Of a stretch of 64,000 nt of DNA, positions 242-61,225 are shown piece after piece. The stretch lies in contig JBFXAY010000006.1 in NCBI GenBank assembly GCA_050183815.1, positions 49,208 to 113,207 of the forward strand. Reading direction: 5' to 3'. The stretch is from Gemmatimonadales bacterium (lineage in GTDB: Bacteria; Gemmatimonadota; Gemmatimonadetes; Gemmatimonadales; GWC2-71-9). The notes below the pieces were generated by a model. That model made no database searches and was not told where the DNA came from. It saw nothing but the letters and a program-made list of their open reading frames with translations. Position numbers and translations under genes: made by a program. Numbering within the stretch: the first letter of the stretch is position 1; every line of letters begins with the position of its first letter.

Positions 242-3200
242 CTAGGATTCGGCTGCCCGCGCGGTCGGGGCCCACCGGGTCAGCACCGTCCGGAGCTCCT
301 CGAGTTTGATCGGTTTGGCGAGGTAGTCGTCCATCCCGGCCCGCAGGCAGCGATCCCGGTCGCCCTCCATCGCGTTGGCGGTGAGCGCCACGATCGGGAC
401 CCGGGCCTCTCGCTGGCCGTACGTCCGGATGGCGGCGGTGGCCTCGTAGCCGTCCATCACCGGCATCTGGCAGTCCATCAGGATCAGCTCGAACGGCATC
501 CGCTGCCACATCTCCACGGCTTCCTTGCCGTTGGTCGCCAGGTCGACGTGACATCCCAGCTTCGTCAGCATCTTGGCGGCCACCTTCTGGTTGACCGGGT
601 TATCGTCGACCAGCAGGACCCGCATCGGCGTCAGACCGGCTTCCGGTCCGTCCGCCGACGCCGCGAGACCTTCAGCCGGCGCCAGGTCGCACCGCGGGGC
701 CACCAGCCGCTCGAGGCTCTCGGCGAAGGTGTCGGACCGGAACGGCCGCGAGAAATAGGCGGTGTAGCCTGCGGCGGCCAGCTCGTCGGCGCGACCCCGG
801 GTACCGCCGTCGGTCACGAGGACGAGGATCGGCTCGCCGAGTTCGTTGTTGGAGCGGACCCGCGATCCGAAGTCCACCGAAAATCGTGCGTGGGGATGAT
901 AGTCCACGATGATCAGCCGGTAGGGGTCGCCGCCCGCGGCGGCCCGGTTGAGCAGATCGAAGGCCCGGGTCGGCGAGTCCGTCGCGTCGATCCGCATGCC
1001 CAGTTCCATCGCGAACTCGGCCATCACCAGCCGCTGCATCGGATTCTTGTCGAGGTAGAGCGTCCGGACGCTCTTGAGGCCGGGATTCGACGGCAGCGCC
1101 GACGCGTGCGGATCGAGCGGGAGGCGAATCGTCGCCCAGAAGGTCGACCCGCGGCCGGCCTCGCTGTTGAGTCCGACGGCCCCGCCCATCAGCTCGGCCA
1201 GTTGCTTGGAGATCGCGAGGCCGAGACCGGTCCCGCCGAACCGCCGCGTCGTGGACGCGTCGGCCTGGGAGAACTTCTGGAACAGCCGGGCGTGGTGCTC
1301 GGGCGGAATCCCGATTCCGGTGTCGGTCACGGCAAGGCGGAGCACCGCCTCGCCGCCCGTGAGTTCCTCGCCGGACACCTCGATCAGGACGTGTCCTTCG
1401 GCCGTGAACTTGATCGCGTTGCCGGTGTAGTTGAACAGGATCTGGCGGACCCGGCCCGCGTCGCCGATCACCCGGCGGGGCGTGCCCGGCGCGAACCGGG
1501 CGGCGAGCCGGAGTCCCTTCTCGCTCGCTCGAGATGCGAGGAGGTCGATGACCTCCTCGACCGCGTTCCGGAGATCGAAGGGCAGCGGTTCGAAGCTGAG
1601 CCGCCCCGCTTCGATCTTCGAGAAGTCGAGGATGTCGTTGATGATCGTGAGCAGCGACTCGCCCGAGGAACGTACCGTGGTGGCGAACTCGCGCTGCTCG
1701 GCCGTCAGGTTCGTATCGAGGAGCAGGCCCACCATGCCGATGATGCCGTTCATCGGCGTTCGAATCTCGTGGCTCATCGTGGCGAGAAACTCGCTCTTGG
1801 CCTGGGCCGCGCTCTCGGCGCGTTCCCGCGCCTCCGAGACCGCTTCCATCGAACGGGCCAGTTCCGCCGCCGTTCGCTCGGTGGCGGCCTTGGCGGTTTC
1901 CAGTTCCCGGAGGTAGCCGAGGCGCTCTTCCTCGAGGCGCTTCTGTGCGTGGATGTCGCGCAGCGTTGCGATGCAGGTTGGCACCCCGTCGAGGAAGACC
2001 CGCCGCACGGCCAGCTCCACTTCGACCATGGCGCCGTCCGGTCGGCGGATCAGCGCCTCGACCGGCTCCTCGCGCCGGGCCCACCGATCCACCAGCGGCT
2101 CGGTCGGATCGGCACCGGGGTCGACGACGATGCTGTCGACCCGCGCCCCAACCAGCTGGTCTGCCGGCCGGGCCAGGAGCCGGACGGCCGCTCCATTGGC
2201 CGACTGGATCAGGCCGTCGTGACCGACCACGAGGAGGCCATCGGCGGTCGCGTTGAAGATCTCGCGCTGGCGGGCGGCGGCCGCCGCCAGCTCATCTTGG
2301 GTCCGCCGCTGCTCCGTCACGTCCTGGAGGCTGCCGAGGTGTCCGGTGACCCGGCCCTGGAACCAGCGCGGATGAGTCCGCGCGTGGACCCACCGGACCT
2401 CTGCTGCCTGCGTCACGATCCGGAACGTCCGGTCGAGGGGCTCAGCGCTCGCGATCGCCGCCTTCCAGGCCAGCACGGTCGCTTCCCGGTCCTCCGGGTG
2501 GACGTAGCTCGCGAACCCGAATCCCTGCAGCTGGCGGGCGGCCACACCAAAGAGAGCCGCGCAGGAGTGATTGACGTAGACCGCCATTCCCGCCGCGTCC
2601 GTCGTGAAGAGGCCCACGGGACTCGAGTCCGCGATGGCGGCGGTCTCGGCTTCGGCCGCGTTCAGCCGCGCGGCGGCGCGCCGCTGGTACCCGAATGTGA
2701 GAATCCCGCCCAGGAGGATCACGGCGAGGAGGGAGCCGAATCCGAGGACGATACGCCGCGACCGCGCGACCTCGCGGCCGACCACGGCACGCCGGTACGC
2801 GATGGCGGCGACGCCCACCACCCGGCCGCCGTCGTCGCGGATCGGCTGGAGGCCGAACTCCCGGTTCCCGATCAGGACGACCGGCGCCGGGGTACCGGCC
2901 CAGGCCCGCTCGAGTTCGGCAGCCGGGGCCTCCGCGAGAAGGGTCGAATCGGCGACCGCCGCCCCACCGATCGCCCGACCGGCCCGGTCGAGCAGGTACG
3001 CGGCTTCGAAATGCGTGTCCTCGGTGAGCCACCGATTCTCCCGCTCGACGGCGGCGGCCAGAGCCGAATCGGGGAACGGCGACCCGGCTGCCTCGAAAAG
3101 CCAGGTGGCGAACTGCGGTGCCACGACGGCGACTCGGTCGGCCAACCGGGCAATGGCCAGCTGTTCGGCCCTGTGGGCGGCCAGCCAGGTAACGACGGTG

Positions 3201-3328
3201 AGGAGGAGGAAGGCTCCCGTCGCAAGCAGCCGGCTCAGAACCGGTCTTGCGACCCGGCGGAGGGTAATGGACCCCAGCAGCGCCGACGCCAGCATCAGGA
3301 CCCCGAAGAGCGGGAATTCCCCTGCCAC
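242..3328 (-). CDS. Hybrid sensor histidine kinase / response regulator (membrane sensor, PAS domains, HisKA, HATPase, pseudo-receiver, receiver)
   Basis: 1028-aa ORF. H-box SHEIRTPMNGIIGM, ATPase G-boxes GTGLGLAISK, and a C-terminal receiver (MRVLLVDDNPVNQ...LILMDCQMPVMDGYEAT...ALTANA). Confidence 0.9.
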   Translation of the reverse strand: MAGEFPLFGVLMLASALLGSITLRRVARPVLSRLLATGAFLLLTVVTWLAAHRAEQLAIARLADRVAVVAPQFATWLFEAAGSPFPDSALAAAVERENRWLTEDTHFEAAYLLDRAGRAIGGAAVADSTLLAEAPAAELERAWAGTPAPVVLIGNREFGLQPIRDDGGRVVGVAAIAYRRAVVGREVARSRRIVLGFGSLLAVILLGGILTFGYQRRAAARLNAAEAETAAIADSSPVGLFTTDAAGMAVYVNHSCAALFGVAARQLQGFGFASYVHPEDREATVLAWKAAIASAEPLDRTFRIVTQAAEVRWVHARTHPRWFQGRVTGHLGSLQDVTEQRRTQDELAAAAARQREIFNATADGLLVVGHDGLIQSANGAAVRLLARPADQLVGARVDSIVVDPGADPTEPLVDRWARREEPVEALIRRPDGAMVEVELAVRRVFLDGVPTCIATLRDIHAQKRLEEERLGYLRELETAKAATERTAAELARSMEAVSEARERAESAAQAKSEFLATMSHEIRTPMNGIIGMVGLLLDTNLTAEQREFATTVRSSGESLLTIINDILDFSKIEAGRLSFEPLPFDLRNAVEEVIDLLASRASEKGLRLAARFAPGTPRRVIGDAGRVRQILFNYTGNAIKFTAEGHVLIEVSGEELTGGEAVLRLAVTDTGIGIPPEHHARLFQKFSQADASTTRRFGGTGLGLAISKQLAELMGGAVGLNSEAGRGSTFWATIRLPLDPHASALPSNPGLKSVRTLYLDKNPMQRLVMAEFAMELGMRIDATDSPTRAFDLLNRAAAGGDPYRLIIVDYHPHARFSVDFGSRVRSNNELGEPILVLVTDGGTRGRADELAAAGYTAYFSRPFRSDTFAESLERLVAPRCDLAPAEGLAASADGPEAGLTPMRVLLVDDNPVNQKVAAKMLTKLGCHVDLATNGKEAVEMWQRMPFELILMDCQMPVMDGYEATAAIRTYGQREARVPIVALTANAMEGDRDRCLRAGMDDYLAKPIKLEELRTVLTRWAPTARAAES

Positions 3329-3660
3329 AGCTCAGATCATCCCCGGTTGTTGATTCATGTTCGAAGATGTCTTCACAGGCTGATCGGGTGGGGAAGAAGG
3401 GTCCGCCCTCCTTCGACTGAACAGGTAGAATCATCGACACCGACCGGACGGACTTTAGGGCCGGATGGCCGGGGCGGGGCAAGGTTCTTTCATGAACGGA
3501 GCCGGTTGGCGGGGCCGAGAATCTCGCCCATTCCCGAGGCCCACAGCGGGTCCCACCGCTGAAACCGGGCGTCCCATTTCCGAACAGGGTGGGCGGCACC
3601 TGGGGCATGGTGTGATTTTGTATCGTGTTGTCTATTAATGACTTACGTTCTTTGATCCGA

Positions 3661-3675
3661 CGGCACGAACATTCC
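3661..3675 (+). promoter_or_regulatory. Weak sigma-54 (-24/-12)-like element upstream of the efflux operon
   Basis: CGGCACGAACATTCC against the consensus TGGCACG-N4-TTGC. The GG and the spacing are correct, but the -12 GC reads CC. It is preceded by a 60-bp AT-rich tract (3601-3660) and lies 40 nt upstream of the GTG at 3715. Confidence 0.3.
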
Positions 3676-3714
3676 CTTTGAGGAGGCGACTGCCCGAACC
3701 AGTACGGAGCGACC

Positions 3715-4962
3715 GTGGACATCATTCGCGACAAGCCGACGAGCAAGAAAAGGATCATCATCGGGTCGGTGATCGCCGTCGGGGTGATCGGCCTCACGGC
3801 GGCCGTGATGAACCTCGACCCGGCCGTTCCGTCGGTCGATGGCGGGACCATCTACTTCGACTCCGTGGTCCGAGGCGAGATGGTCCGCGAGGTCCGGGGC
3901 CCGGGCACGCTGGTCCCCGAGGATATTCGGTGGATCACGGCCGTCACGGCCGGCCGGGTGGAGAAGATCCATCACCTGGCCGGCGTCGAGGTCGAACCGG
4001 GGACGGTGCTCCTCGAATTGGCCAATCCGGACGTCCAGATTCAAACGCTCAACGCCGACCGCCAGCTCACCGACGCCGAGGCCCAGCTCGTTACCCTCAA
4101 GACGAATCTCGAGAACAACCGGCTCAACCAGGCCTCCACGGTCGCCCAGATGAAGCAGGAGTCCGCCGATGCCCGCCGTCGGGCCGAGGCGGGGGCGGAG
4201 CTGCTCAAGAAGAACCTGATCGTGCCGCTCGACCAGCAGCAGGCGCAGGATCGCTCGGAGGCGCTGATCGAGCGGCTCCAGATCGAGGAACAGCGGCTCA
4301 AGATCCTGTCCTCGACCATCGAGGACCAGATCCGGGTCCAGGAGGAGCAGGTGGCCCGGCTCCGGTCCATCGCCCAGTTCCAGCACGGCCTCGCCGCCTC
4401 GATGACGGTGCGCGCCGGCGCCCGCGGGATCCTCCAGGAAGTGCCGTTCCAGGTGGGCCAGTACGCCCTGCCGGGTGCCACGCTTGCGAAGGTGGTTCCG
4501 ACGCCGATTCGCCTCAAGGCGGTGCTCCGGATCCCCGAGACCCAGGCCAAGGACCTGGCCCTCGGCCAGAAGGCGATGATCGACACACGCAACGGAATCG
4601 CCCCGGGAAGGATCATTAGAATGGATCCGGCCTCGATCAACGGGACGGTCACCGTGGACGTGAGTCTCGATGACGCGCCGCCGTCCGGGAGCCGGCCCGA
4701 TCTGAGCGTTGACGGCGTGATCGAGTTGGAGCGGCTGGAGAATGTCCTCCACGTCGGCCGGCCGACGATCGCGCAGCAGAACAGTCCGGGGACCGTGTTC
4801 CGGCTCGTTGACGGCGGGAAGTACGCCGAGCGGGTCCAGGTCCGGTTCGGCCGGACGTCGGTCAGCCGGGTGGAAATCGTCGAAGGCCTCGAACCCGGCG
4901 ACGTGATCATCATGTCGGACATGTCCCAGTGGGACGAGTACGACCGGGTTCGAATCAAATAG
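3715..4962 (+). CDS. HlyD/MacA-type periplasmic adaptor (membrane fusion protein) of an ABC efflux system
   Basis: 415-aa ORF with an N-terminal TM anchor, a coiled-coil hairpin (LTDAEAQLVTLKTNLE...) and barrel-sandwich/beta-barrel segments. It is the first gene of the operon with the ABC ATPase and FtsX permease. Confidence 0.85.
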   Translation: MDIIRDKPTSKKRIIIGSVIAVGVIGLTAAVMNLDPAVPSVDGGTIYFDSVVRGEMVREVRGPGTLVPEDIRWITAVTAGRVEKIHHLAGVEVEPGTVLLELANPDVQIQTLNADRQLTDAEAQLVTLKTNLENNRLNQASTVAQMKQESADARRRAEAGAELLKKNLIVPLDQQQAQDRSEALIERLQIEEQRLKILSSTIEDQIRVQEEQVARLRSIAQFQHGLAASMTVRAGARGILQEVPFQVGQYALPGATLAKVVPTPIRLKAVLRIPETQAKDLALGQKAMIDTRNGIAPGRIIRMDPASINGTVTVDVSLDDAPPSGSRPDLSVDGVIELERLENVLHVGRPTIAQQNSPGTVFRLVDGGKYAERVQVRFGRTSVSRVEIVEGLEPGDVIIMSDMSQWDEYDRVRIK

Positions 4963-36587: not shown

Positions 36588-37706
36588 ATCGGCAGGCGCG
36601 GTCCGGGCGGCGGCCAGCCGCGCCAGCCGACGCGTCGCCGCTTCCTCCGACTCGAAGATGCCGGCCTGATACCGCGACCCCGGATTCCAGAGCACCCACG
36701 AGCGGACCCCCAGCTCCTCCGCCGCACGGATCTGTTCCCGGACCTCGAAGACCCCGTAGCGCGGCGCTCCGAGGGTGAACGACTGCAGGTAGGGTCGGAT
36801 CTCGGCGACCCGGTCCGCCCGGATCGCCGCCGAGCGGCGCAGGCCGTCCTGCAGCGCCCGCCGGACCATGTGGTACGGTGCGCTGTTGGGATGGCTGGCC
36901 CCGTAGACGCCCCGCTGATAGTGACTCGGGTAGACCATCGGCAGCACCACGTCGGCGGTGGTGACCAGGTCCTCCCACAACTGTCCGATTCCCATGTCAT
37001 CGACCGCGGTGGTCGTCAGGCCGAAGATGTCGATCGTGAACGGGACGCCGAAGGCCCGGGTCCGGTGGCCGATGAGCGTGAGATTGCGGGCGACGCCGTC
37101 GCGGGTCGACTCGCCTTCGCGGCGGGCCGGAAAGACGGCCGTCGCCATCCGGCTGCGGGGCTCGTCGGGAAAGCGGACGTAGTCGTACTGGATTTCGTCG
37201 AATCCGATCGCGGCCGCCTCGCGGGCCAGCTGGGCCGCGTAGACCCAGACGGAGTCGTTGAACGCGTCGACCCAGTTGGTGCCCTTCCGGTCGGTCCACA
37301 GCGAGCCGTCGTCCTTGCGGATGGCCCATTCGGGCTTGTTCCGGGCCAGGAGCGGATCCTTCGCGACCACGATCCGCGCAACGGTCCGGATGCCGCGTTG
37401 CTTGATCTCGTGGAGGCGGCGAGCTGCATCGCGGGCCCGAAGCTGCTTGTTGGCGCCGATCGCGATCGCGGTCGGAACGGTGGAGCGATAGGTGAGGTAC
37501 CCGGTGTCGTCTTTGACGTCGATCACCAGGGCATTGATCTCGGTCGTGTCGGCGAGGCGAACCAGGTCCCAGATTCGCGAAGTGCCGAAGGCCCACGCAT
37601 TCACATAGAGCGCCCGCCACGGGCCGCCCGGTGCCGGCTGCGCGGCGGCCGGAGCGGCCAGCATCAGCCCCACAAGGGCGATCAGTCGGGACGGCGCGCG
37701 GGACAT
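36540..37706 (-). CDS. Putative glycoside hydrolase-like TIM-barrel protein (COG1306/GHL type), secreted
   Basis: 388 aa with a signal peptide. The YVNAWAF...INALVIDVKDDTGYLTY block is typical of this uncharacterised hydrolase-like family. Confidence 0.7.
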   Translation of the reverse strand: MSRAPSRLIALVGLMLAAPAAAQPAPGGPWRALYVNAWAFGTSRIWDLVRLADTTEINALVIDVKDDTGYLTYRSTVPTAIAIGANKQLRARDAARRLHEIKQRGIRTVARIVVAKDPLLARNKPEWAIRKDDGSLWTDRKGTNWVDAFNDSVWVYAAQLAREAAAIGFDEIQYDYVRFPDEPRSRMATAVFPARREGESTRDGVARNLTLIGHRTRAFGVPFTIDIFGLTTTAVDDMGIGQLWEDLVTTADVVLPMVYPSHYQRGVYGASHPNSAPYHMVRRALQDGLRRSAAIRADRVAEIRPYLQSFTLGAPRYGVFEVREQIRAAEELGVRSWVLWNPGSRYQAGIFESEEAATRRLARLAAARTAPADSAVAADRGGRRENRP

Positions 37707-38428
37707 CCGAACGTGTCTACCTCGGTGCCGGCCGGAGTGGCCGGGCAGCGATCGAGCCCGTCGAGCACGCCATCGCCGTCGCTATCCGTGGGGCAGCCCC
37801 GGCTGTCCACCAGCGCTCCCCGGGGCGTGGCGGGGCACCGGTCCCGTCGATCGGGAATCTGATCGAGGTCGCTGTCCGGACCATCGCCGCTCGGCGTCCG
37901 GTTCACGCCGGTGAGGAAGGTGACGCCGACGCTCGCGCCGAACGACGTGTAGCGATACACGGGGCGGGTCCGCACCATCCCCTCGCCGCGCAACTGGGCC
38001 GTGCCGGCCAGAGGCAGGCGAAAGCCGAGACCTCCCGAAGCGGCGCCGTGGGTCGGACATACGGTCGTGTTGAAGATGCAGCCGGAGTGGCGGATCAGAC
38101 CGTAGCCGCCGCGAACGTACACCGTGCCGCTCCCGGCCTTCACATTGAACAGCACGTTTCCGGCGAGATACCGGAGCGTAAACGTGTTGTCCACCGCCGA
38201 ATTGTGGGGGCGGGTCATGTCGAACTGGCCCTCCAGTTCGAACCCGGCGGGCAGCCAGATCCCCAGCCGGGTTCCCGCGCCGACGGCCCGGAGTCCGTCG
38301 AGCGTCGTCGTCTTATTGTGCCAGACGCCCAGCGCGGACACCTCCAACGTCCCGGCGCGCTGGGCCGACGCATTTTCGAACACCCCGCTCAGCGCGAGAG
38401 TGGCGAGGACTGCGGACGAGAAGCGCAT
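37682..38428 (-). CDS. Outer-membrane beta-barrel protein with thrombospondin type-3 (Ca-binding) repeats, no OmpA C-terminal domain
   Basis: Start at ATG 38428 with a signal peptide (MRFSSAVLATLALSGVFENASAQ), an 8-strand-like barrel, then DSDLDQIPDRRDRCP...DSDGDGVLDGLDRCP repeats. The ORF ends right after the repeats. Confidence 0.75.
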   Translation of the reverse strand: MRFSSAVLATLALSGVFENASAQRAGTLEVSALGVWHNKTTTLDGLRAVGAGTRLGIWLPAGFELEGQFDMTRPHNSAVDNTFTLRYLAGNVLFNVKAGSGTVYVRGGYGLIRHSGCIFNTTVCPTHGAASGGLGFRLPLAGTAQLRGEGMVRTRPVYRYTSFGASVGVTFLTGVNRTPSGDGPDSDLDQIPDRRDRCPATPRGALVDSRGCPTDSDGDGVLDGLDRCPATPAGTEVDTFGCPARRPD

Positions 38429-38489
38429 AACGTTATAGATAGGGAACTTACCGGTGCCCGGCAAGCAGCCGATCGGCGGCGCTCCGCTC

Positions 38490-38518
38490 TTGGCGGCAGT
38501 AGCCGAGGGCGCTAGCAT
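38490..38518 (+). promoter_or_regulatory. Sigma-70-like promoter candidate for the Rdx-pfkA unit
   Basis: TTGGCG-N17-TAGCAT, 43 nt upstream of ATG 38561. Confidence 0.3.
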
Positions 38519-38560
38519 ACCGGCTTCCGAAGCGTTTCTCGCAGCCATGCCGGAGGGACA

Positions 38561-38791
38561 ATGCAGGTTTCGATCCAGTACTGCGTCGCCTGAAACTACG
38601 AACCGCGGGCCGCCAGGCTGGCGGCCGAACTCAAGGAGGCGTTTCCGGACGTCGATATCAAGAAGGTTCCGTCGAGCGGCGGGGTCTTCGAGGTGACGGT
38701 CGACGGGACGCTGCTGTTCTCGAAGAAGGCGCTAGGTCGGCACGCCGGGCCCGGTGAGGTGCTCGAGCTGATTCGGAGCCGGCCGCACTAG
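38561..38791 (+). CDS. SelW/SelT/SelH (Rdx) family selenoprotein, with in-frame TGA 38591-38593 read as Sec (CVAU motif)
   Basis: From ATG 38561 (GGAGGG SD): MQVSIQYCVA-U-NYEPRAARLAAELKEAFPDVDIKKVPSSGGVFEVTVDGTLLFSKKALGRHAGPGEVLELIRSRPH-TAG. This matches the Rdx fold signature (CxxU near the N-terminus, FEV.V.G.L.FSK). A hairpin lies 14 nt after the TGA. Confidence 0.8.
38608..38626 (+). promoter_or_regulatory. SECIS-like hairpin downstream of the Rdx TGA
   Basis: GGCCGCC-AGGCU-GGCGGCC: a 7-bp GC stem (plus a possible A-U closing pair) with a G-containing loop. Confidence 0.5.
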
Positions 38792-38806
38792 GGCGGGGGA
38801 GATCGG

Positions 38807-39952
38807 ATGCGTATCGCGATTTCGACCGGCGGCGGCGACGCTCCGGGCCTCAACGCCGTCATCCGGGCGGTCGTCCTGTCCGCGCACCAGCGCGGCTGGG
38901 AATGCTTCGGCATTCGCCGGGGATACGACGGACTCTACCGGCGGGGCGGCGGACTGCGCTACGCCTACAACAAGCCGTACGAAGGACCCGACCGCCGCCG
39001 CGAGCCGCTCGGCGGTCTCATGCCCCTCGGCCCGAAAGAGGTCCGGGGCATCACTCACCTCGGCGGCACGATTCTGGGCACCAGCAACCGGGGCAACCCG
39101 TTTTCCTGGCCGACCCGGCTCCCCGACGGATCGATCCAGGAAGTCGATCGCTCGGACGAACTGGTCGAATCCTTCCGGGCGCATGGGCTCGACGCCCTGG
39201 TGGCCATTGGCGGCGACGGCAGTCTGACCATCGCCCACGGGCTCTGGAAGAAAGGCATTCCGGTCGTCGGGGTCCCGAAGACGATCGACAATGACGTCGT
39301 CGGGACCGAGGCGACGTTCGGTTTCGACACGGCCGTGTCCACGGCGACTGAAGCGCTCGACAAGGTGCACACCACGGCGGAAAGCCACGACCGGGTCATG
39401 GTCGTCGAGCTGATGGGCCGCTATGCCGGATGGATTTCCCTCCACAGCGGTCTCTCGGGCAGCGCCGACGTCATCCTGATTCCCGAGATTCCGTTCGACA
39501 TCGACAAGGTCTGCGAGAAGATCCGGGCCCGCGAACGCGCCGGCCGCAATTTCTCGATCGTGGTCGTGGCGGAAGGGGCCCGGCCGATCGGCGGCCGCGC
39601 CGCCCTCCTCGAGGAAGCGAAGCTCGGCTCCGTCGAACGGCTCGGCGGCATGGCGGCGCAGGTGGCCGCGCTGATCTCGGAACGAACGGGCAAGGAAACC
39701 CGGAGTCTCGTCCTCGGCCACCTCCAGCGGGGCGGGTCGCCGACCACCTTCGACCGGCTGCTGGCGCTCCGCTTCGGCTCGGCCGCGGTGCGGGCCATCG
39801 GCGAGGAAGCGTTCGGCACCGTCGTGGTGTTCACCCCGCCGACGGTCAGCCGCCGTCCGATCGCCGACGTGATGGGCCGGCAGAAGACCGTGCCCCTCGA
39901 CAGCGGCATCATTCTTACCGCCCGGAACCTCGGCATCTCCTTCGGCGACTGA
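38807..39952 (+). CDS. pfkA: ATP-dependent 6-phosphofructokinase
   Basis: 381 aa. GGGDAPGLNAVIRAVV, IGGDGS, PKTIDND, MGR motifs. GDGS rather than GDDS suggests ATP dependence. Confidence 0.92.
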   Translation: MRIAISTGGGDAPGLNAVIRAVVLSAHQRGWECFGIRRGYDGLYRRGGGLRYAYNKPYEGPDRRREPLGGLMPLGPKEVRGITHLGGTILGTSNRGNPFSWPTRLPDGSIQEVDRSDELVESFRAHGLDALVAIGGDGSLTIAHGLWKKGIPVVGVPKTIDNDVVGTEATFGFDTAVSTATEALDKVHTTAESHDRVMVVELMGRYAGWISLHSGLSGSADVILIPEIPFDIDKVCEKIRARERAGRNFSIVVVAEGARPIGGRAALLEEAKLGSVERLGGMAAQVAALISERTGKETRSLVLGHLQRGGSPTTFDRLLALRFGSAAVRAIGEEAFGTVVVFTPPTVSRRPIADVMGRQKTVPLDSGIILTARNLGISFGD

Positions 39953-39961
39953 CCGCCTGCC

Positions 39962-40306
39962 TCAGGATTTCACGAAGGGAGTGGCCGGGCCCCGGAGCGA
40001 CGACCCGGGGCCCGGTTGCCAAGTGACCTGGGTTTCGATCAACGCGGCCACCTCGAGATCCTTGCCGGTGATTCCCCCGGCGCTGTGGGTCGACAGCGAG
40101 ATCGTGACGGCCGGCCAGGTCACCAGTACGTCGGCGTGGTGGTCCGCCGCCTCGCAGACGAACGCCACCGCTCCGGCCACGAGCATCGATCCGCGCCAGC
40201 CATCGGTCTCGAAGCGGCGCACGATCCGGCCGCCATCGGCCTTCCACCGGGGCAGTCCCACCAGGCCGGTGGCCAGCTCCTCCGGCGTCAGTCGCGTCTC
40301 ACTCAT
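39962..40306 (-). CDS. phhB: 4a-hydroxytetrahydrobiopterin (pterin-4a-carbinolamine) dehydratase
   Basis: Start at ATG 40306 (MSETRLTPEELA...). Signature FVCEAADHHADVLVTWPAVTISLSTHSAGG (DHHP-type motif). Confidence 0.85.
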   Translation of the reverse strand: MSETRLTPEELATGLVGLPRWKADGGRIVRRFETDGWRGSMLVAGAVAFVCEAADHHADVLVTWPAVTISLSTHSAGGITGKDLEVAALIETQVTWQPGPGSSLRGPATPFVKS

Positions 40307-40832
40307 GGGTCCTCCCTTCGGGGGCGAGTTCCGTCTCGAACCGGCCGCTCTGGCCGGGTCCTTCCTCGACGTCAACGGTGACCCGCGTGACCCCCGCCGC
40401 ACCTTCCCGGCGAAGGCCGGCTACGACCTCCCCGGTGAGGAAGCAGGCAAGGAGTTCGGCGGTCGTGTCCTGGACTGGGACGATCGCCACGTGGGCGGTG
40501 GGGAAGACGAAGCGGCGGCTCCCCCGGTAGTGAACCGCGGTGGCGTCGCCCGCCTGGTGGACCGAGACCGCGGGATTCTCGCCGGGAACCAGGACCCGGT
40601 GGTCGATCCGGTCGATCACCGGCCGGAGCACCTTCTTCACCACGGCAAAATCCACCACGAAGCCGCTCGCCTGGTCGACTGACCCTTCGACTACGACCGT
40701 GACCACGTAATTGTGGCCATGGAGGGCTTCGCACTTATGGCCGGGGATCGTCAGGAAGTGCGCGGCGGAAAAGGTCAGGTAGTCTTTCGATACCGAAACC
40801 GAGAACCGTCCGGGAAGCCGGGAACCCGTCAT
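40299..40832 (-). CDS. 6-pyruvoyl-tetrahydropterin / 6-carboxy-tetrahydropterin synthase family protein
   Basis: 177 aa. FSAAHFL...GHKCEALHGHNY (Zn-binding His residues and catalytic Cys). ATGA overlap with the MFS gene stop. Confidence 0.85.
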   Translation of the reverse strand: MTGSRLPGRFSVSVSKDYLTFSAAHFLTIPGHKCEALHGHNYVVTVVVEGSVDQASGFVVDFAVVKKVLRPVIDRIDHRVLVPGENPAVSVHQAGDATAVHYRGSRRFVFPTAHVAIVPVQDTTAELLACFLTGEVVAGLRREGAAGVTRVTVDVEEGPGQSGRFETELAPEGRTHE

Positions 40833-52347: not shown

Positions 52348-52890
52348 CTACCGCTCCGACTCGAGTTCGACCCCGAGGCCGTCCGCGATCCGGTTGACGT
52401 ACGCGAAGTAGGCGACGATCACGCAGGCGTCGTGGATGGCCCGGTCGTCGAGGCCCGCGGTCCGGAGCGCGACGATATCGCCCGCGGTGACGCCGGCGGG
52501 CCGCTGCGTGAGCCGCTCAGCGTAGCGCACGAGCGCTTGTTCGGCGGGATCCAGGTCGGCGGCCGCGGCCGCGGCCTCGGTCTGGAGGGCGGCCACCAGG
52601 GCGTCCTGCCGGTCCTTCGGCAGTCCCTCCGCGGCGAGCAGCTGACGGAGACCCGCTCCGTGGTGGTGAATTCAATACCGGCATTCGTTGAGCGCCGACA
52701 CCCGGACCGCGAGAATTTCGCGGGTCCGCCGGGACAACGGGCCGGGCCCGTGCATGGCCGTGCGGTAAAGGTCGAAGTGGTTGCGCATCGCCGCCGGGTG
52801 AATGGCGTGGATCTGGATGATGTTGTCCGGATCGGGCACCCGGGCTTCGGGGTCCAGCTCGGAATCGGGGCGATAACGGATGAAAGCCAT
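52348..52890 (-). CDS. AhpD/carboxymuconolactone-decarboxylase-family peroxidase-related selenoprotein, with in-frame TGA 52674-52672 read as Sec (CRYU motif)
   Basis: Two same-frame track ORFs (52672-52890 and 52348-52596) join through a single TGA: ...ILAVRVSALNECRY-U-IHHHGAGLRQLLAAEGLPKDRQDALVAALQTE... The TGA sits at the second Cys of the family N.C.YC...H motif. A hairpin lies 11 nt downstream. Confidence 0.8.
52645..52661 (-). promoter_or_regulatory. SECIS-like hairpin downstream of the AhpD-like TGA
   Basis: Minus-strand RNA ACGGAG-CGGGU-CUCCGU: a 6-bp stem with a 5-nt G/U loop, starting 11 nt after the UGA. Confidence 0.5.
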
Positions 52891-52980
52891 GGCGGGACGG
52901 TTCGGGTTCCGTGGAAACTAGTCCCCATCGGGGCCTTCGCCTACCTTCCCGTCTCTCTCCTTCCGACTCGAGGCACTCCG

Positions 52981-53502
52981 ATGACCAGACTGCTGGCGCT
53001 CGTGGTACTTGGCGCGGTGCTTCCGGCGACCGTGGCAGCGCAAGGAGCCGAGGCGCGCCTTCGGGAACTCAAGATCACCCTGCCCGAGGTCGCTCCGCCG
53101 CTGGCCAATTACCTGCCGGCCGTCCGGTCCGGAAACCTTGTGTTCCTGGCGGGGCACGGCCCGGCGCAGCCCTGGGGGCCGACGGCCACGGGAAAGGTCG
53201 GCCGCGACCTCACGGTGGAGCAGGGCTACGAGGCGGCGCGCAACGTCGGGATCAACTTGCTGGCCTCGCTCAAGGCCGAGGTCGGCAGCCTCGACAAGGT
53301 CAGGCGGATCGTGAAGGTGCTGGGGATGGTCAACTCCGCCGAGGGTTTCGGCCAGCAGCCCGAGGTGATCAACGGGTTTTCCGATCTCATGGTGTCGGTC
53401 TTCGGGCCGCGCGGCAAACACGCCCGCTCGGCCGTGGGCATGGCGGCGCTGCCGCGCGGCCTGTCGGTCGAGATCGAGATGATCGTCGAAGTCGAGCCGT
53501 AG
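52981..53502 (+). CDS. RidA/YjgF/L-PSP family protein with an N-terminal signal peptide
   Basis: Start at ATG 52981 (MTRLLALVVLGAVLPATVAAQG). C-terminal RSAVGMAALPRGLSVEIEMIVEV signature. Confidence 0.85.
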   Translation: MTRLLALVVLGAVLPATVAAQGAEARLRELKITLPEVAPPLANYLPAVRSGNLVFLAGHGPAQPWGPTATGKVGRDLTVEQGYEAARNVGINLLASLKAEVGSLDKVRRIVKVLGMVNSAEGFGQQPEVINGFSDLMVSVFGPRGKHARSAVGMAALPRGLSVEIEMIVEVEP

Positions 53503-58615: not shown

Positions 58616-58963
58616 CTACTTCACGAACTTCTCGTAGGTCTCCTGGTCGAACCCCACCAGCAGCGTCCGGCCCTTTCGTACGGTCGGCGCCCGGAGGTTT
58701 CCGCTCGGTCCGACGAGGACCGCGGCCAGGTCTGCCCGGGAAGGCTGATCCCGCTTGAGATCGAAGTGAAGCACCTTCCGGCCCTTGGTGACGTACAGGT
58801 GGTCGATGCCCTCGAGCACGGCGAGGGCCTGCTTGCCGGGAATGGTCCGCTTCTTCGCGTCCACCGTTTCGGTGACGGTGGCGTCATGCTGCGCAAGGAA
58901 CCCTTGCGTACGTTTGCAGCTGATTCACCCGGGGCGCAGGTACGCCCAATCGACTTTCGGCAT
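58616..58963 (-). CDS. ArsC/Spx/YffB-fold selenoprotein, with in-frame TGA 58927-58925 read as Sec (UISC motif)
   Basis: From ATG 58963: MPKVDWAYLRPG-U-ISCKRTQGFLAQHDATVTETVDAKKRTIPGK...LRAPTVRKGRTLLVGFDQETYEKFVK. The track ORF (58616-58864) is only the C-terminal part, in the same frame. The TGA aligns with the first Cys of the fold's N-terminal CxxC/CxxS. A hairpin lies 17 nt downstream. Confidence 0.78.
58892..58908 (-). promoter_or_regulatory. SECIS-like hairpin downstream of the ArsC-like TGA
   Basis: Minus-strand RNA CGCAAGG-GUU-CCUUGCG (or a 6-bp stem with a GGUUC loop), flanked by an outer GCUG/CAGC helix. Confidence 0.5.
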
Positions 58964-59010: not shown

Positions 59011-60084
59011 TCAGGGCTGTGGCGTGGGCCGCCCGCCCGGTTTCCATTCCGGTTTGGGACCGTCCGCGAGGATCCGCACCGCGGCGGCGGCCGCGTCGAT
59101 GACCCGGGCAAAATGGTCGCGGTCGACCCGGCTGATTTCGTCGCTGGGCCGGTGATAGTCCTCGTGCATGTTGAACGTCGACAAGGTATGCGCGACGATG
59201 CCCTTGAGGGCGAACTGATAGTTGTCGCTCCGGCGGAAGAAGTTTTGGGCCGGCCGGCGATCAGGCCCGATCGGAAGGCCCGCTGCCGCGAGCGCCTCTC
59301 CCATCGTGCTTCGTTCGTACCCGGTCAGCCACGCCCGGCCCGGTCCGCCGGCGAGCGAATCAGGACGGCCGATCATTTCGATCTCGAGGTTGGCCACCAT
59401 CTGGTCGAGGGGGCGGACCGGATGGTCCGAGAACCATCGCGCGCCGAGGAGGCCGGATTCCTCGCCGATCCAGGTCGCGAAGACGAGGGTCCGCCGCGGC
59501 CGCGGTCCGCGGGCAATCTGCCGGGCGATTTCCAGGACGGCCACCACCCCTGACGCGTCGTCGTCCGCCCCGTTGTAGATCGAGTCGCCGTTGACGGGGG
59601 CGCGAATACCGACGTGGTCGTAATGCGCTCCAATCAGCACGTATTCGTCCGCGAGTGCCGGATCCGCTCCCGCGATCAGGCCGACGACGTTCGACCCCGG
59701 GAGCCGGTCCGCGGCCGGGAACGAGTCGCGCGCCGCGAAGCTTGCCGCCACCATCGGTCCCCGGACGGTTCGCTCCTGGCCGCCATTGCGGAACGTGCGA
59801 CTCGCCATGACCAGCGGCACGCGCTGGTGGAAGCCACTGTCGCCGGCCGGGGTGAGGCCAGCCCCGCGCATTTCCTCCGCGATGATGCGGGCGGCCGATA
59901 CTGCGCCCGGACGGCCCGTGGCCCGGCCCGCCAGCGAGTCGTCGGACAGGGTGGCGAGGAGCCGGTAGGCCGCGCCCGGGTCGGTCATCGGCTGAGACGG
60001 AGCGGCGTGGCCCCCGCAGGCCGCGAGCAGGAGCACGGCGGCGGGCCAGGAGCGGGTGGGCAATGTCAGGTTCGGAAAGGTCAT
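59011..60084 (-). CDS. M28 family zinc aminopeptidase, lipoprotein
   Basis: Start at ATG 60084 (MTFPNLTLPTRSWPAAVLLLAACGG). Metal-ligand blocks IGAHYDHVG, GADDDASG, EESGLLGA. Confidence 0.88.
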   Translation of the reverse strand: MTFPNLTLPTRSWPAAVLLLAACGGHAAPSQPMTDPGAAYRLLATLSDDSLAGRATGRPGAVSAARIIAEEMRGAGLTPAGDSGFHQRVPLVMASRTFRNGGQERTVRGPMVAASFAARDSFPAADRLPGSNVVGLIAGADPALADEYVLIGAHYDHVGIRAPVNGDSIYNGADDDASGVVAVLEIARQIARGPRPRRTLVFATWIGEESGLLGARWFSDHPVRPLDQMVANLEIEMIGRPDSLAGGPGRAWLTGYERSTMGEALAAAGLPIGPDRRPAQNFFRRSDNYQFALKGIVAHTLSTFNMHEDYHRPSDEISRVDRDHFARVIDAAAAAVRILADGPKPEWKPGGRPTPQP

Positions 60085-60277
60085 CGAGGTATCGTCAGGG
60101 TTCGGTCGGCGGCGGGCCAACGAGCCAGCGTCCGGCATGCCCGAGGCCGCGCTTCGCCGTGCGGACGTGGATCGTAAACGGGGTGGGTCGCCGGCGGCAC
60201 CGCCGTCCCGGAAGCGATGCCGGCGGCACGTCCCTCCGCTTGGGCGGCAGCCGACGCGCCGGCCGACGCCCCGCCGG

Positions 60278-61225
60278 TCATTCGTCCGGCGGCCCACCGG
60301 CGGCCGCGACCTGTCCGGGCTTGATCTTCCCGGCGTCGAGGCGTCCGGCGGCCGCCGTCATCTTCTCGATGATCTCGTCGGGATCCATCTTCGCGCCGCG
60401 CTTGAAGCGGATCGGATTGATCCGGGCGATCACGAAGGCCTTGAGATAGGGACTCTCGAGCCCTCGGGCCCTCAGTTCCGCCACCTTCTCCACGACGGCA
60501 GCGTCGAGCGCCAGCAGGCGCTCGGCCCGTTCCCGGCGGGTGGCGAGCGATTTGGAGAGCCGGGCGGCGGAGAACGACTCGGTGCGTTTGAGGACCGGAT
60601 GGTACGCCCCGCCCGAAAACCGGCCGTTCAGCTGGTAGCAGGCTCCGAGCGTCAGCAGGGCGGGCTCCTCGAACTCGGTCTCGTACTCCCGTTCCGGTCG
60701 GTCGTCGAGCGCACTCAGCGCCTCGGCGAGGCGGATCACTTCGAGGGCCCGTTCCCGGACATTGTGGGCCTTCTCGGTGTTGAGCACCAGGATCCGGTGG
60801 GCCACCGACTGGTCCGGCACCACGATCGCGAGCACCGCGCGGGCGCCCAGCTGCCGCATGGCCGCGAGCCGGTGGTTGCCGTTCGGCGTCCAGTAGCGGC
60901 CGTCCGCGGTCCGGACGGCTACGACCGGGTCGATGAACCGTCCGAGCCGGTCGATCGCGTCGGCGAGCCGGGCCACATGGGTCGGCGAGAGATCCCGCTG
61001 GTACGGCGTCGGCTCGACCCGGTCGAGGGGCAGGGCCGCCAGCAGCTGCCAGTGGCCACCGAGCGGCTCGCGGTAGTTGCCGACCACCGCGCCCCCGTCG
61101 GCCTCCACTTGGGTGGCCAGCGTCTCGAGGGCCGCCGGCGGCTTTCCGGATCCCACCGCGGCCGCCGTCAGACCCCGGGGTTCGGGCGCTTCCTTGCGTT
61201 TCTTGCGCGGGCGGGCGGTGGCCAT
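60278..61225 (-). CDS. ParB/Srx-fold N-terminal domain protein (orphan, no parA nearby)
   Basis: Start at ATG 61225 with a Lys/Arg-rich N-terminus. ParB-like block TPYQRDLSPTHVARLADAI...NGNHRLAAM. Confidence 0.75.
   Translation of the reverse strand: MATARPRKKRKEAPEPRGLTAAAVGSGKPPAALETLATQVEADGGAVVGNYREPLGGHWQLLAALPLDRVEPTPYQRDLSPTHVARLADAIDRLGRFIDPVVAVRTADGRYWTPNGNHRLAAMRQLGARAVLAIVVPDQSVAHRILVLNTEKAHNVRERALEVIRLAEALSALDDRPEREYETEFEEPALLTLGACYQLNGRFSGGAYHPVLKRTESFSAARLSKSLATRRERAERLLALDAAVVEKVAELRARGLESPYLKAFVIARINPIRFKRGAKMDPDEIIEKMTAAAGRLDAGKIKPGQVAAAGGPPDE

Follow-up and report, generated by a model that had tools for sequence, protein, structure and literature searches.

Does the reading frame that opens with ATG at 38561-38563 on the forward strand of the window (the whole 64-kb stretch of DNA analysed here) end at the TGA codon at 38591-38593, or does it run on through this codon to the TAG at 38789-38791? 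The evidence set out below makes it very likely that 38561-38791 (+) is a genuine Rdx/SelW-like selenoprotein gene, in which the UGA is recoded by a SECIS and which forms the first cistron of an rdx-pfk unit. In such a gene the UGA would be read as selenocysteine, giving the active-site motif Cys8-x-x-Sec11, and a hairpin at 38608-38626 would act as a bacterial SECIS, bringing SelB-GTP-Sec-tRNASec to the ribosome, as can be inferred from the established bacterial mechanism.

Re-reading of the coordinates from the sequence confirmed the start, in-frame TGA, stop and translation originally predicted for this hidden gene. It comprises 76 codons, including the UGA at codon 11, plus the TAG, and its translation runs MQVSIQYCVA, the TGA codon, and then NYEPRAARLAAELKEAFPDVDIKKVPSSGGVFEVTVDGTLLFSKKALGRHAGPGEVLELIRSRPH up to the stop. 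The Cys codon TGC (38582-38584) opens the CxxU motif TGC GTC GCC TGA (38582-38593, +), which translates as Cys8-Val-Ala-Sec11. A Shine-Dalgarno-like GGAGGG (38552-38557, +) is separated from the ATG by 3 nt, rather than by the 5 nt given in the original prediction. On the other side of the gene a spacer of 15 nt (GGCGGGGGAGATCGG; 38792-38806, +), which includes the ribosome-binding site GGGGGAG, leads from the TAG to the ATG at 38807 of a phosphofructokinase gene, pfk (38807-39952, +), encoding 381 aa.

The list of open reading frames does contain, as had been stated, an ORF of 80 aa in another frame (38454-38696) that overlaps rdx, but this is not its only cover; a spurious antisense ORF (38732-39721) also overlaps the region, and a same-frame remnant of 32 aa begins within rdx at GTG 38693. 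Upstream lies a divergent ORF, 37682-38548 (-), with matches to the TSP3 repeat and to an OmpA-like anchor. Its true start probably lies not at 38548 but at 38428, where the encoded sequence (MRFSSAVLATLALSG...) is signal-peptide-like, and with the start revised in this way a relatively AT-rich intergenic region of 132 nt (38429-38560), probably divergent, is left to accommodate the putative rdx-pfk promoter. A promoter scan of 38300-40100 returned no sigma-70 consensus or promoter-like site.

Profile searches with the 76-residue product, in which U was written as C, place it firmly in the Rdx family. The Pfam Rdx model PF10262 is matched with E=6.7e-22 and 77.9 bits (cut-off 22.6) over profile positions 1-73 of 74, and two NCBIfam models are also matched above their cut-offs: NF041051, 'SelT/SelW/SelH family (seleno)protein', with 101.3 bits against 88, and TIGR02174, CXXU_selWTH, with 71.5 bits against 34.2. 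All three matches span the TGA and cover nearly the full length of the product, and the family membership that had been proposed from the letters of the DNA is thereby upheld. Sequence matches in the PDB comprise Atu0228 (2fa8, E=2.8e-13), MIEN1, SAV_2001 and mouse SelW (2npb).

The fold was examined on a proxy, P0001, which is the closest full-length database relative and is 72% identical to the window protein. Its structure model (pLDDT 88.2) has the elements E-H-E-E-E-H-H, that is, a β-α-β-β-β-α order, in which β1 comprises residues 2-8 and α1 residues 13-27, with the CxxU position in the β1-α1 loop. The best PDB matches of this model are all SelW-related, with TM values of 0.86-0.89 and an rmsd of about 1.4 Å. 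Judged by this 72%-identical proxy, the rdx product is a thioredoxin-fold Rdx/SelW-like protein; it is most likely a thiol/selenol oxidoreductase. The bacterial Rdx structures of the Cys type (Atu0228 2fa8, PA 2oka, P. fluorescens 2obk, Bordetella 2ojl, SAV_2001 3dex and Vibrio 2p0g) have this same fold, within the TM and rmsd ranges given for the proxy, and carry CxxC in the same place; they differ in having Cys for Sec, in their length of about 80-105 residues with extensions, and in being encoded without a SECIS. Mammalian selenoprotein W (2npb) and MIEN1 (2ljk) likewise share the Rdx fold and the CxxU/CxxC motif, but their identity is about 25-30% and the eukaryotic SECIS is of another type, located in the 3' UTR.

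The simplest reading of the TGA is that it is a true stop, the locus then being a pseudogene, or a former CxxC Rdx gene in which a nonsense change or an error of sequencing created the stop, with nothing functional beyond codon 10. Standard gene callers treat the codon in just this way; moreover, no Sec machinery was seen in the window, and about 109 of the best 120 protein-database relatives are fragments of 52-65 aa that start after the TGA, with a few full-length entries among the remainder. A comparison at the DNA level argues strongly against such a reading. When one genome per species was scanned, 80 related loci were obtained, mostly from Gemmatimonadales MAGs, with others from Acidobacteriota, Planctomycetota, Desulfopila, Myxococcota, Actinomycetota and further groups. 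In 80/80 of these loci, and hence in several phyla, a TGA occupies the aligned CxxU codon, with the same start and the same frame, and the protein is strongly conserved on both sides, xIxYCxx preceding the TGA and NYxPRAxxLAAEL...GGVFEV..DG...FSK following it in frame. The alignment thus crosses the TGA in every relative, in agreement with the prediction that the frame continues past a TGA placed at the second redox position. GC3 in the rdx frame is similar on the two sides of the codon (0.90 upstream, 0.86 downstream), and the hairpin that follows the TGA co-evolves, as described below. No nonsense mutation, sequencing error or decaying pseudogene can account for a TGA that is conserved in 80 of 80 loci with a conserved protein on both sides, and we regard a true stop as having almost no probability.

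The full-length database entries are of three kinds: true Cys forms, in which TGT stands in the same alignment column as the TGA of the window; entries in which TGA has been translated as W; and a single entry with CGA (Arg). The W entries number at least two, P0003 and P0008, in both of which the Sec codon appears as W; in the DNA of the locus L085 this codon is TGA. The CGA belongs to the pfk-linked gene at 698-922 of L086, a 1-kb contig of GCA_033612675.1, in which the hairpin is intact and the pfk start overlaps the gene. This CGA might reflect a recent loss of function, an error in the assembly or a variant that is tolerated, and its sequence suggests that the Sec residue can occasionally be lost or misread. 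Among the fragments (P0011-P0120), many begin at an internal Leu or Met of LAAELK.

If the UGA is recoded as Sec, a SECIS should be found close behind it. Bacterial SECIS elements are described as stem-loops that lie within the ORF just 3' of the UGA and carry a G in a small apical loop (PMC1088965), and the sequence at 38608-38626 (+), within the CDS, fits these published features. Its 7-bp stem, formed by the arms GGCCGCC (38608-38614) and GGCGGCC (38620-38626), begins 14 nt after the TGA and closes a 5-nt loop, AGGCT (38615-38619). Folding of the single sequence was one of the checks proposed for the original prediction; the z-scores around the TGA are -2.05 for 45 nt, -0.68 for 63 nt and 0.05 for 90 nt, which are not significant on their own. 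Since these values are not decisive, we turned to the comparison with relatives, using an ungapped alignment of 81 sequences (A1) from -6 to +54 around the TGA.

In this alignment G 38616 and U 38619 of the loop are invariant, 94.8% of the cells of the 7-bp stem are paired in standard fashion, and five of the seven pairs show changes on both sides; none of 500 shuffles reached any of the five observed measures. Such figures have to be weighed against the possibility that the hairpin is no SECIS, being instead a by-product of the GC-rich Ala codons (GCC GCC ... GCG GCC) that encode a helix RAAxLAAEL. The arms do consist of Ala codons in a genome of 69.5% GC, the peptide is conserved, and the shuffle control of the stem leaves the phylogenetic relatedness of the sequences in. 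A second control, in which the 3' arm was slid by 1-3 columns with relatedness retained, brought pairing down to 18-63%. Two synonymous third-codon positions covary in the outermost pair (24-42), which occurs as AU 31, GC 30, CG 4 and UA 1 times.

Inner compensations in three loci are informative as well. In L025 the arms read GCCATC/GATGGC (codons GCC ATC ... ATG GCT, Ala-Ile/Met-Ala), in L042 GCCTCC/GGAGGC (GCC TCC ... GAG GCC, Ala-Ser/Glu-Ala) and in L074 GCTTCC/GGAAGC (GCT TCC ... GAA GCT, Ala-Ser/Glu-Ala), so that in each case two residues are altered together and pairing is kept. Compensations that change two amino acids at once imply that selection maintains the RNA structure even at some expense to the protein. 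The converse is seen in the TGT forms (L081-L084, representing two independent Cys sequences), where the peptide is nearly the same (RAAALAAEI) but the arms are non-complementary and there is no loop G; locally these genes fold less stably or in another register, at -8.8 kcal/mol for L081-L083 and -12.5 for L084, compared with -16.9 for the window. We conclude from these sequence comparisons that the hairpin is an RNA structure under selection, and that its origin as a mere consequence of Ala codons is highly improbable. The prediction of a hairpin at the position of a SECIS is therefore well borne out, with the pairing and the loop G kept in the TGA forms and lost in these two Cys sequences.

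The SECIS of E. coli fdhF is an in-CDS stem-loop immediately 3' of the UGA, with G and U in its apical loop. The loop GGUCU found in many of the relatives resembles the GGUC of fdhF. The invariant loop G here, however, lies at +26 from the U of the UGA, compared with G23 in fdhF, and the hairpin of the window family has neither a conserved bulged U nor an evident lower helix.

A selected hairpin behind a conserved TGA leaves the question of what is inserted at this codon, and whether the host decodes Sec at all. The UGA might be read through in some other way, either because TGA has become a sense codon (for Trp or Gly, in the manner of codes 4 and 25) or because it is suppressed by a near-cognate tRNA, for Trp or for Cys, while the hairpin does no more than slow termination. 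The W given for the codon in P0003 and P0008 would accord with this, though the codon in L085 really is TGA, as would the outcome of the search for Sec machinery. That search combined SelA/SelD motif scans, tblastn with an approximate E. coli SelD query, ARAGORN and Pfam; in the 64-kb window it found no selA, selB, selD or tRNA-Sec (motif scans, tRNA search, and Pfam on 40 ORFs), and in about 0.9 Mb of related DNA no Sec machinery genes or tRNA-Sec either. ARAGORN did report a 96-nt 'tRNA-Glu(ctc)' at 1474-1569 (-), which was considered as a tRNA-Sec and rejected as almost certainly a false positive; Rfam gives no tRNA match for it, and its position falls within a CDS, in the part of a hybrid histidine-kinase gene (242-3328, -; 1028 aa) that encodes HisKA/HATPase.

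The use of TGA elsewhere in the window speaks against a reassigned code. TGA terminates 19 of the 30 Pfam-supported genes and is absent from their 14,234 sense codons; as an ordinary terminator that does not occur in sense positions, it indicates a standard genetic code. When the window was scanned for read-through, two more in-frame TGAs came to light, both on the redox residue of families known to use Sec. The first is in an AhpD/CMD-like selenoprotein gene at 52348-52890 (-), which matches TIGR01926 with 111.8 bits (cut-off 81.8). Its TGA (52672-52674) lies in the motif NECRY-U-IHHHG (CxxU), and a hairpin, ACGGAG-CGGGU-CUCCGU (52645-52661), starts 10 nt after the UGA. TGA is found in 37 of 39 metagenomic relatives, the two most distant having TGC or TGT. 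The gene is antisense to the N-terminal part of an ORF at 52432-53502 (+), the true start of which is probably much further downstream, its RidA/YjgF domain covering residues 207-353 only.

The second is an ArsC/Spx-like selenoprotein gene at 58616-58963 (-), with its TGA at 58925-58927 in the motif G-U-ISC-KR (UxxC). It matches NF041106, 'ArsC family (seleno)protein', with 135.9 bits (cut-off 85), and a hairpin, CGCAAGG-GUU-CCUUGCG (58892-58908), starts 16 nt downstream of the UGA. The protein's nearest relative, from a Gemmatimonadales MAG, is 94% identical and bears the NCBI name '(seleno)protein [Gemmatimonadales bacterium]'; for most relatives, the 102 aa behind the TGA are all that is on record. 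The gene lies 47 nt downstream of an M28 peptidase gene (59011-60297, -).

The three in-frame TGAs of the window thus all stand at the redox position of a Sec family, namely CxxU in Rdx, CxxU in the AhpD-like protein and UxxC in the ArsC-like protein, and each is followed at SECIS distance by a hairpin with a G-containing apical loop. A Trp or Gly at the catalytic position of the CxxC motif, moreover, would inactivate the Rdx protein. We therefore consider read-through with a residue other than Sec very improbable, and favour recoding of the UGA as selenocysteine. With three independent recoding sites in 64 kb, the host very likely decodes Sec, and on these sequence features the source organism, a Gemmatimonadales-type soil or freshwater bacterium, very probably uses selenocysteine. 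About 525 kb of Gemmatimonadales flanks were also scanned and contained no further convincing selenoprotein gene, so that we do not propose an unusually large selenoproteome.

The rdx gene belongs to a long-established family of prokaryotic selenoproteins (PMC1088965, PMC1794560), for which NCBI already provides '(seleno)protein' models. In the Sargasso Sea data set, SelW-like proteins were described as more abundant than any other selenoprotein family (PMC1088965), and they are also found in Deltaproteobacteria, Clostridia and Symbiobacterium (PMC1794560). In common with these proteins (PF10262, TIGR02174, NF041051), the window protein has the same domain, the same length class and a CxxU motif with Sec in second place, and its gene likewise has a SECIS directly downstream with G in a small apical loop; it differs in its Gemmatimonadales-like host and in its tight and conserved coupling to pfk. 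A literature search found no paper specifically on Sec use or on the selenoproteome of Gemmatimonadetes/Gemmatimonadota.

For such a family the main value of the present analysis lies in correcting annotation, as rdx and the two other selenoprotein genes of the window are invisible to ordinary ORF callers, and most database relatives are either N-terminally truncated, without the catalytic motif, or translated with the wrong code. The 81 sequences also give a comparative picture of the SECIS of the SelW-like family. The one point that is modestly new is the lineage-specific pairing of rdx with pfk.

The product of the downstream gene belongs to the phosphofructokinase family (PF00365, E=6.4e-104), as its original label pfkA implied, but on the phosphoryl donor the profiles point in two directions. 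The protein passes NF002872, for the ATP-PFK subfamily, with 364 bits against a cut-off of 253, yet its best subfamily match is to TIGR02483, PFK_mixed, with 413.9 bits, just under the cut-off of 430.55. It carries the motifs GGDG and PKTIDND, which we take to be a mixed Gly/Lys signature of the PFK specificity residues. The rdx-linked PFKs (from the window and L001-L080) share this mixed signature, together with an insertion of about 35 residues, relative to the profiles, near positions 40-72.

The proximity of the two genes is conserved. Of the 80 loci, 54 have a PFK start no more than 100 nt downstream of rdx, as detected by regular expression, and for 41 of them the gap is at most 17 nt or the genes overlap; a further locus, L064 (Longimicrobiales), was missed by the expression but confirmed as pfk-linked by Pfam. 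By taxon label, the linkage is found in 54 of 58 evaluable Gemmatimonadota loci and in essentially none of about 20 loci outside this phylum, the exception being a 1.7-kb contig from a Methylomirabilota bin. In the window, where pfk follows on the same strand after the 15 nt that had been predicted, a scan of 38300-40100, which includes the rdx-pfk junction, found no terminator-like site. The prediction that rdx and pfk share one operon and one transcript is well supported by these features of sequence and arrangement. Here rdx would be the first cistron, and pfk probably the second gene, of a two-gene unit conserved in Gemmatimonadota, a conservation which indicates that the two proteins are probably co-expressed.

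Whether the two proteins also act together is a more speculative matter. The conserved, often overlapping arrangement of rdx and pfk offers a concrete and testable lead to the function of bacterial SelW-like proteins, though a lead only. Cys236 of the window PFK, in the sequence DKVCEKI, is conserved in 49 of 51 rdx-linked PFKs and corresponds to a residue that is presumably Val in E. coli PfkA; this conservation may be taken as a weak lead towards a redox interaction with Rdx. The proposal that in Gemmatimonadota the SelW-like selenoprotein serves PFK as a redox partner of its own, coupled to it in translation and acting for example on Cys236, is in our judgement unlikely. Were it true, glycolytic flux would depend on selenium or on thiol-redox status, and a bacterial SelW-like protein would for the first time have a concrete function. 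A literature search found no report of a bacterial Rdx-PFK link. In mammals, the reported partners of SelW are glutathione and PKM2, and the SelW-PKM2 interaction (PMC10943047) can serve as an analogy only.

Other lineages show other neighbours. In all five of the Acidobacteriota loci L058, L061, L072, L075 and L078, a proline dehydrogenase gene, encoding about 300 aa, lies directly 3' of the TGA-containing Rdx gene, the gap ranging from -4 to +69 nt, and PF01619 was confirmed for the enzymes of L058 and L075. After pfk, this is the second lineage-specific partnering of Rdx with an enzyme of catabolism. If the PFK partnership were true, the pairing with proline dehydrogenase would be a parallel case, Rdx being attached in both to catabolic entry enzymes. 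In L066 a peroxiredoxin is found 292 nt downstream of the Rdx gene. The four Cys-form loci (L081-L084) and one TGA-form locus from Gemmatimonadota (L042) have the same large, unrelated gene 3' of Rdx; in L042 it spans 2161-4725 and encodes 854 aa, with the N-terminus ...PPTGRVIVIAPTRAACETIELA..., and has no Pfam match at E <= 1e-5. In the window itself, the region 3' of pfk (39962-40832, -) encodes a pterin-4a-carbinolamine dehydratase and a 6-pyruvoyl-tetrahydropterin synthase, followed by an MFS transporter, and this small pterin-related cluster is convergent with pfk.
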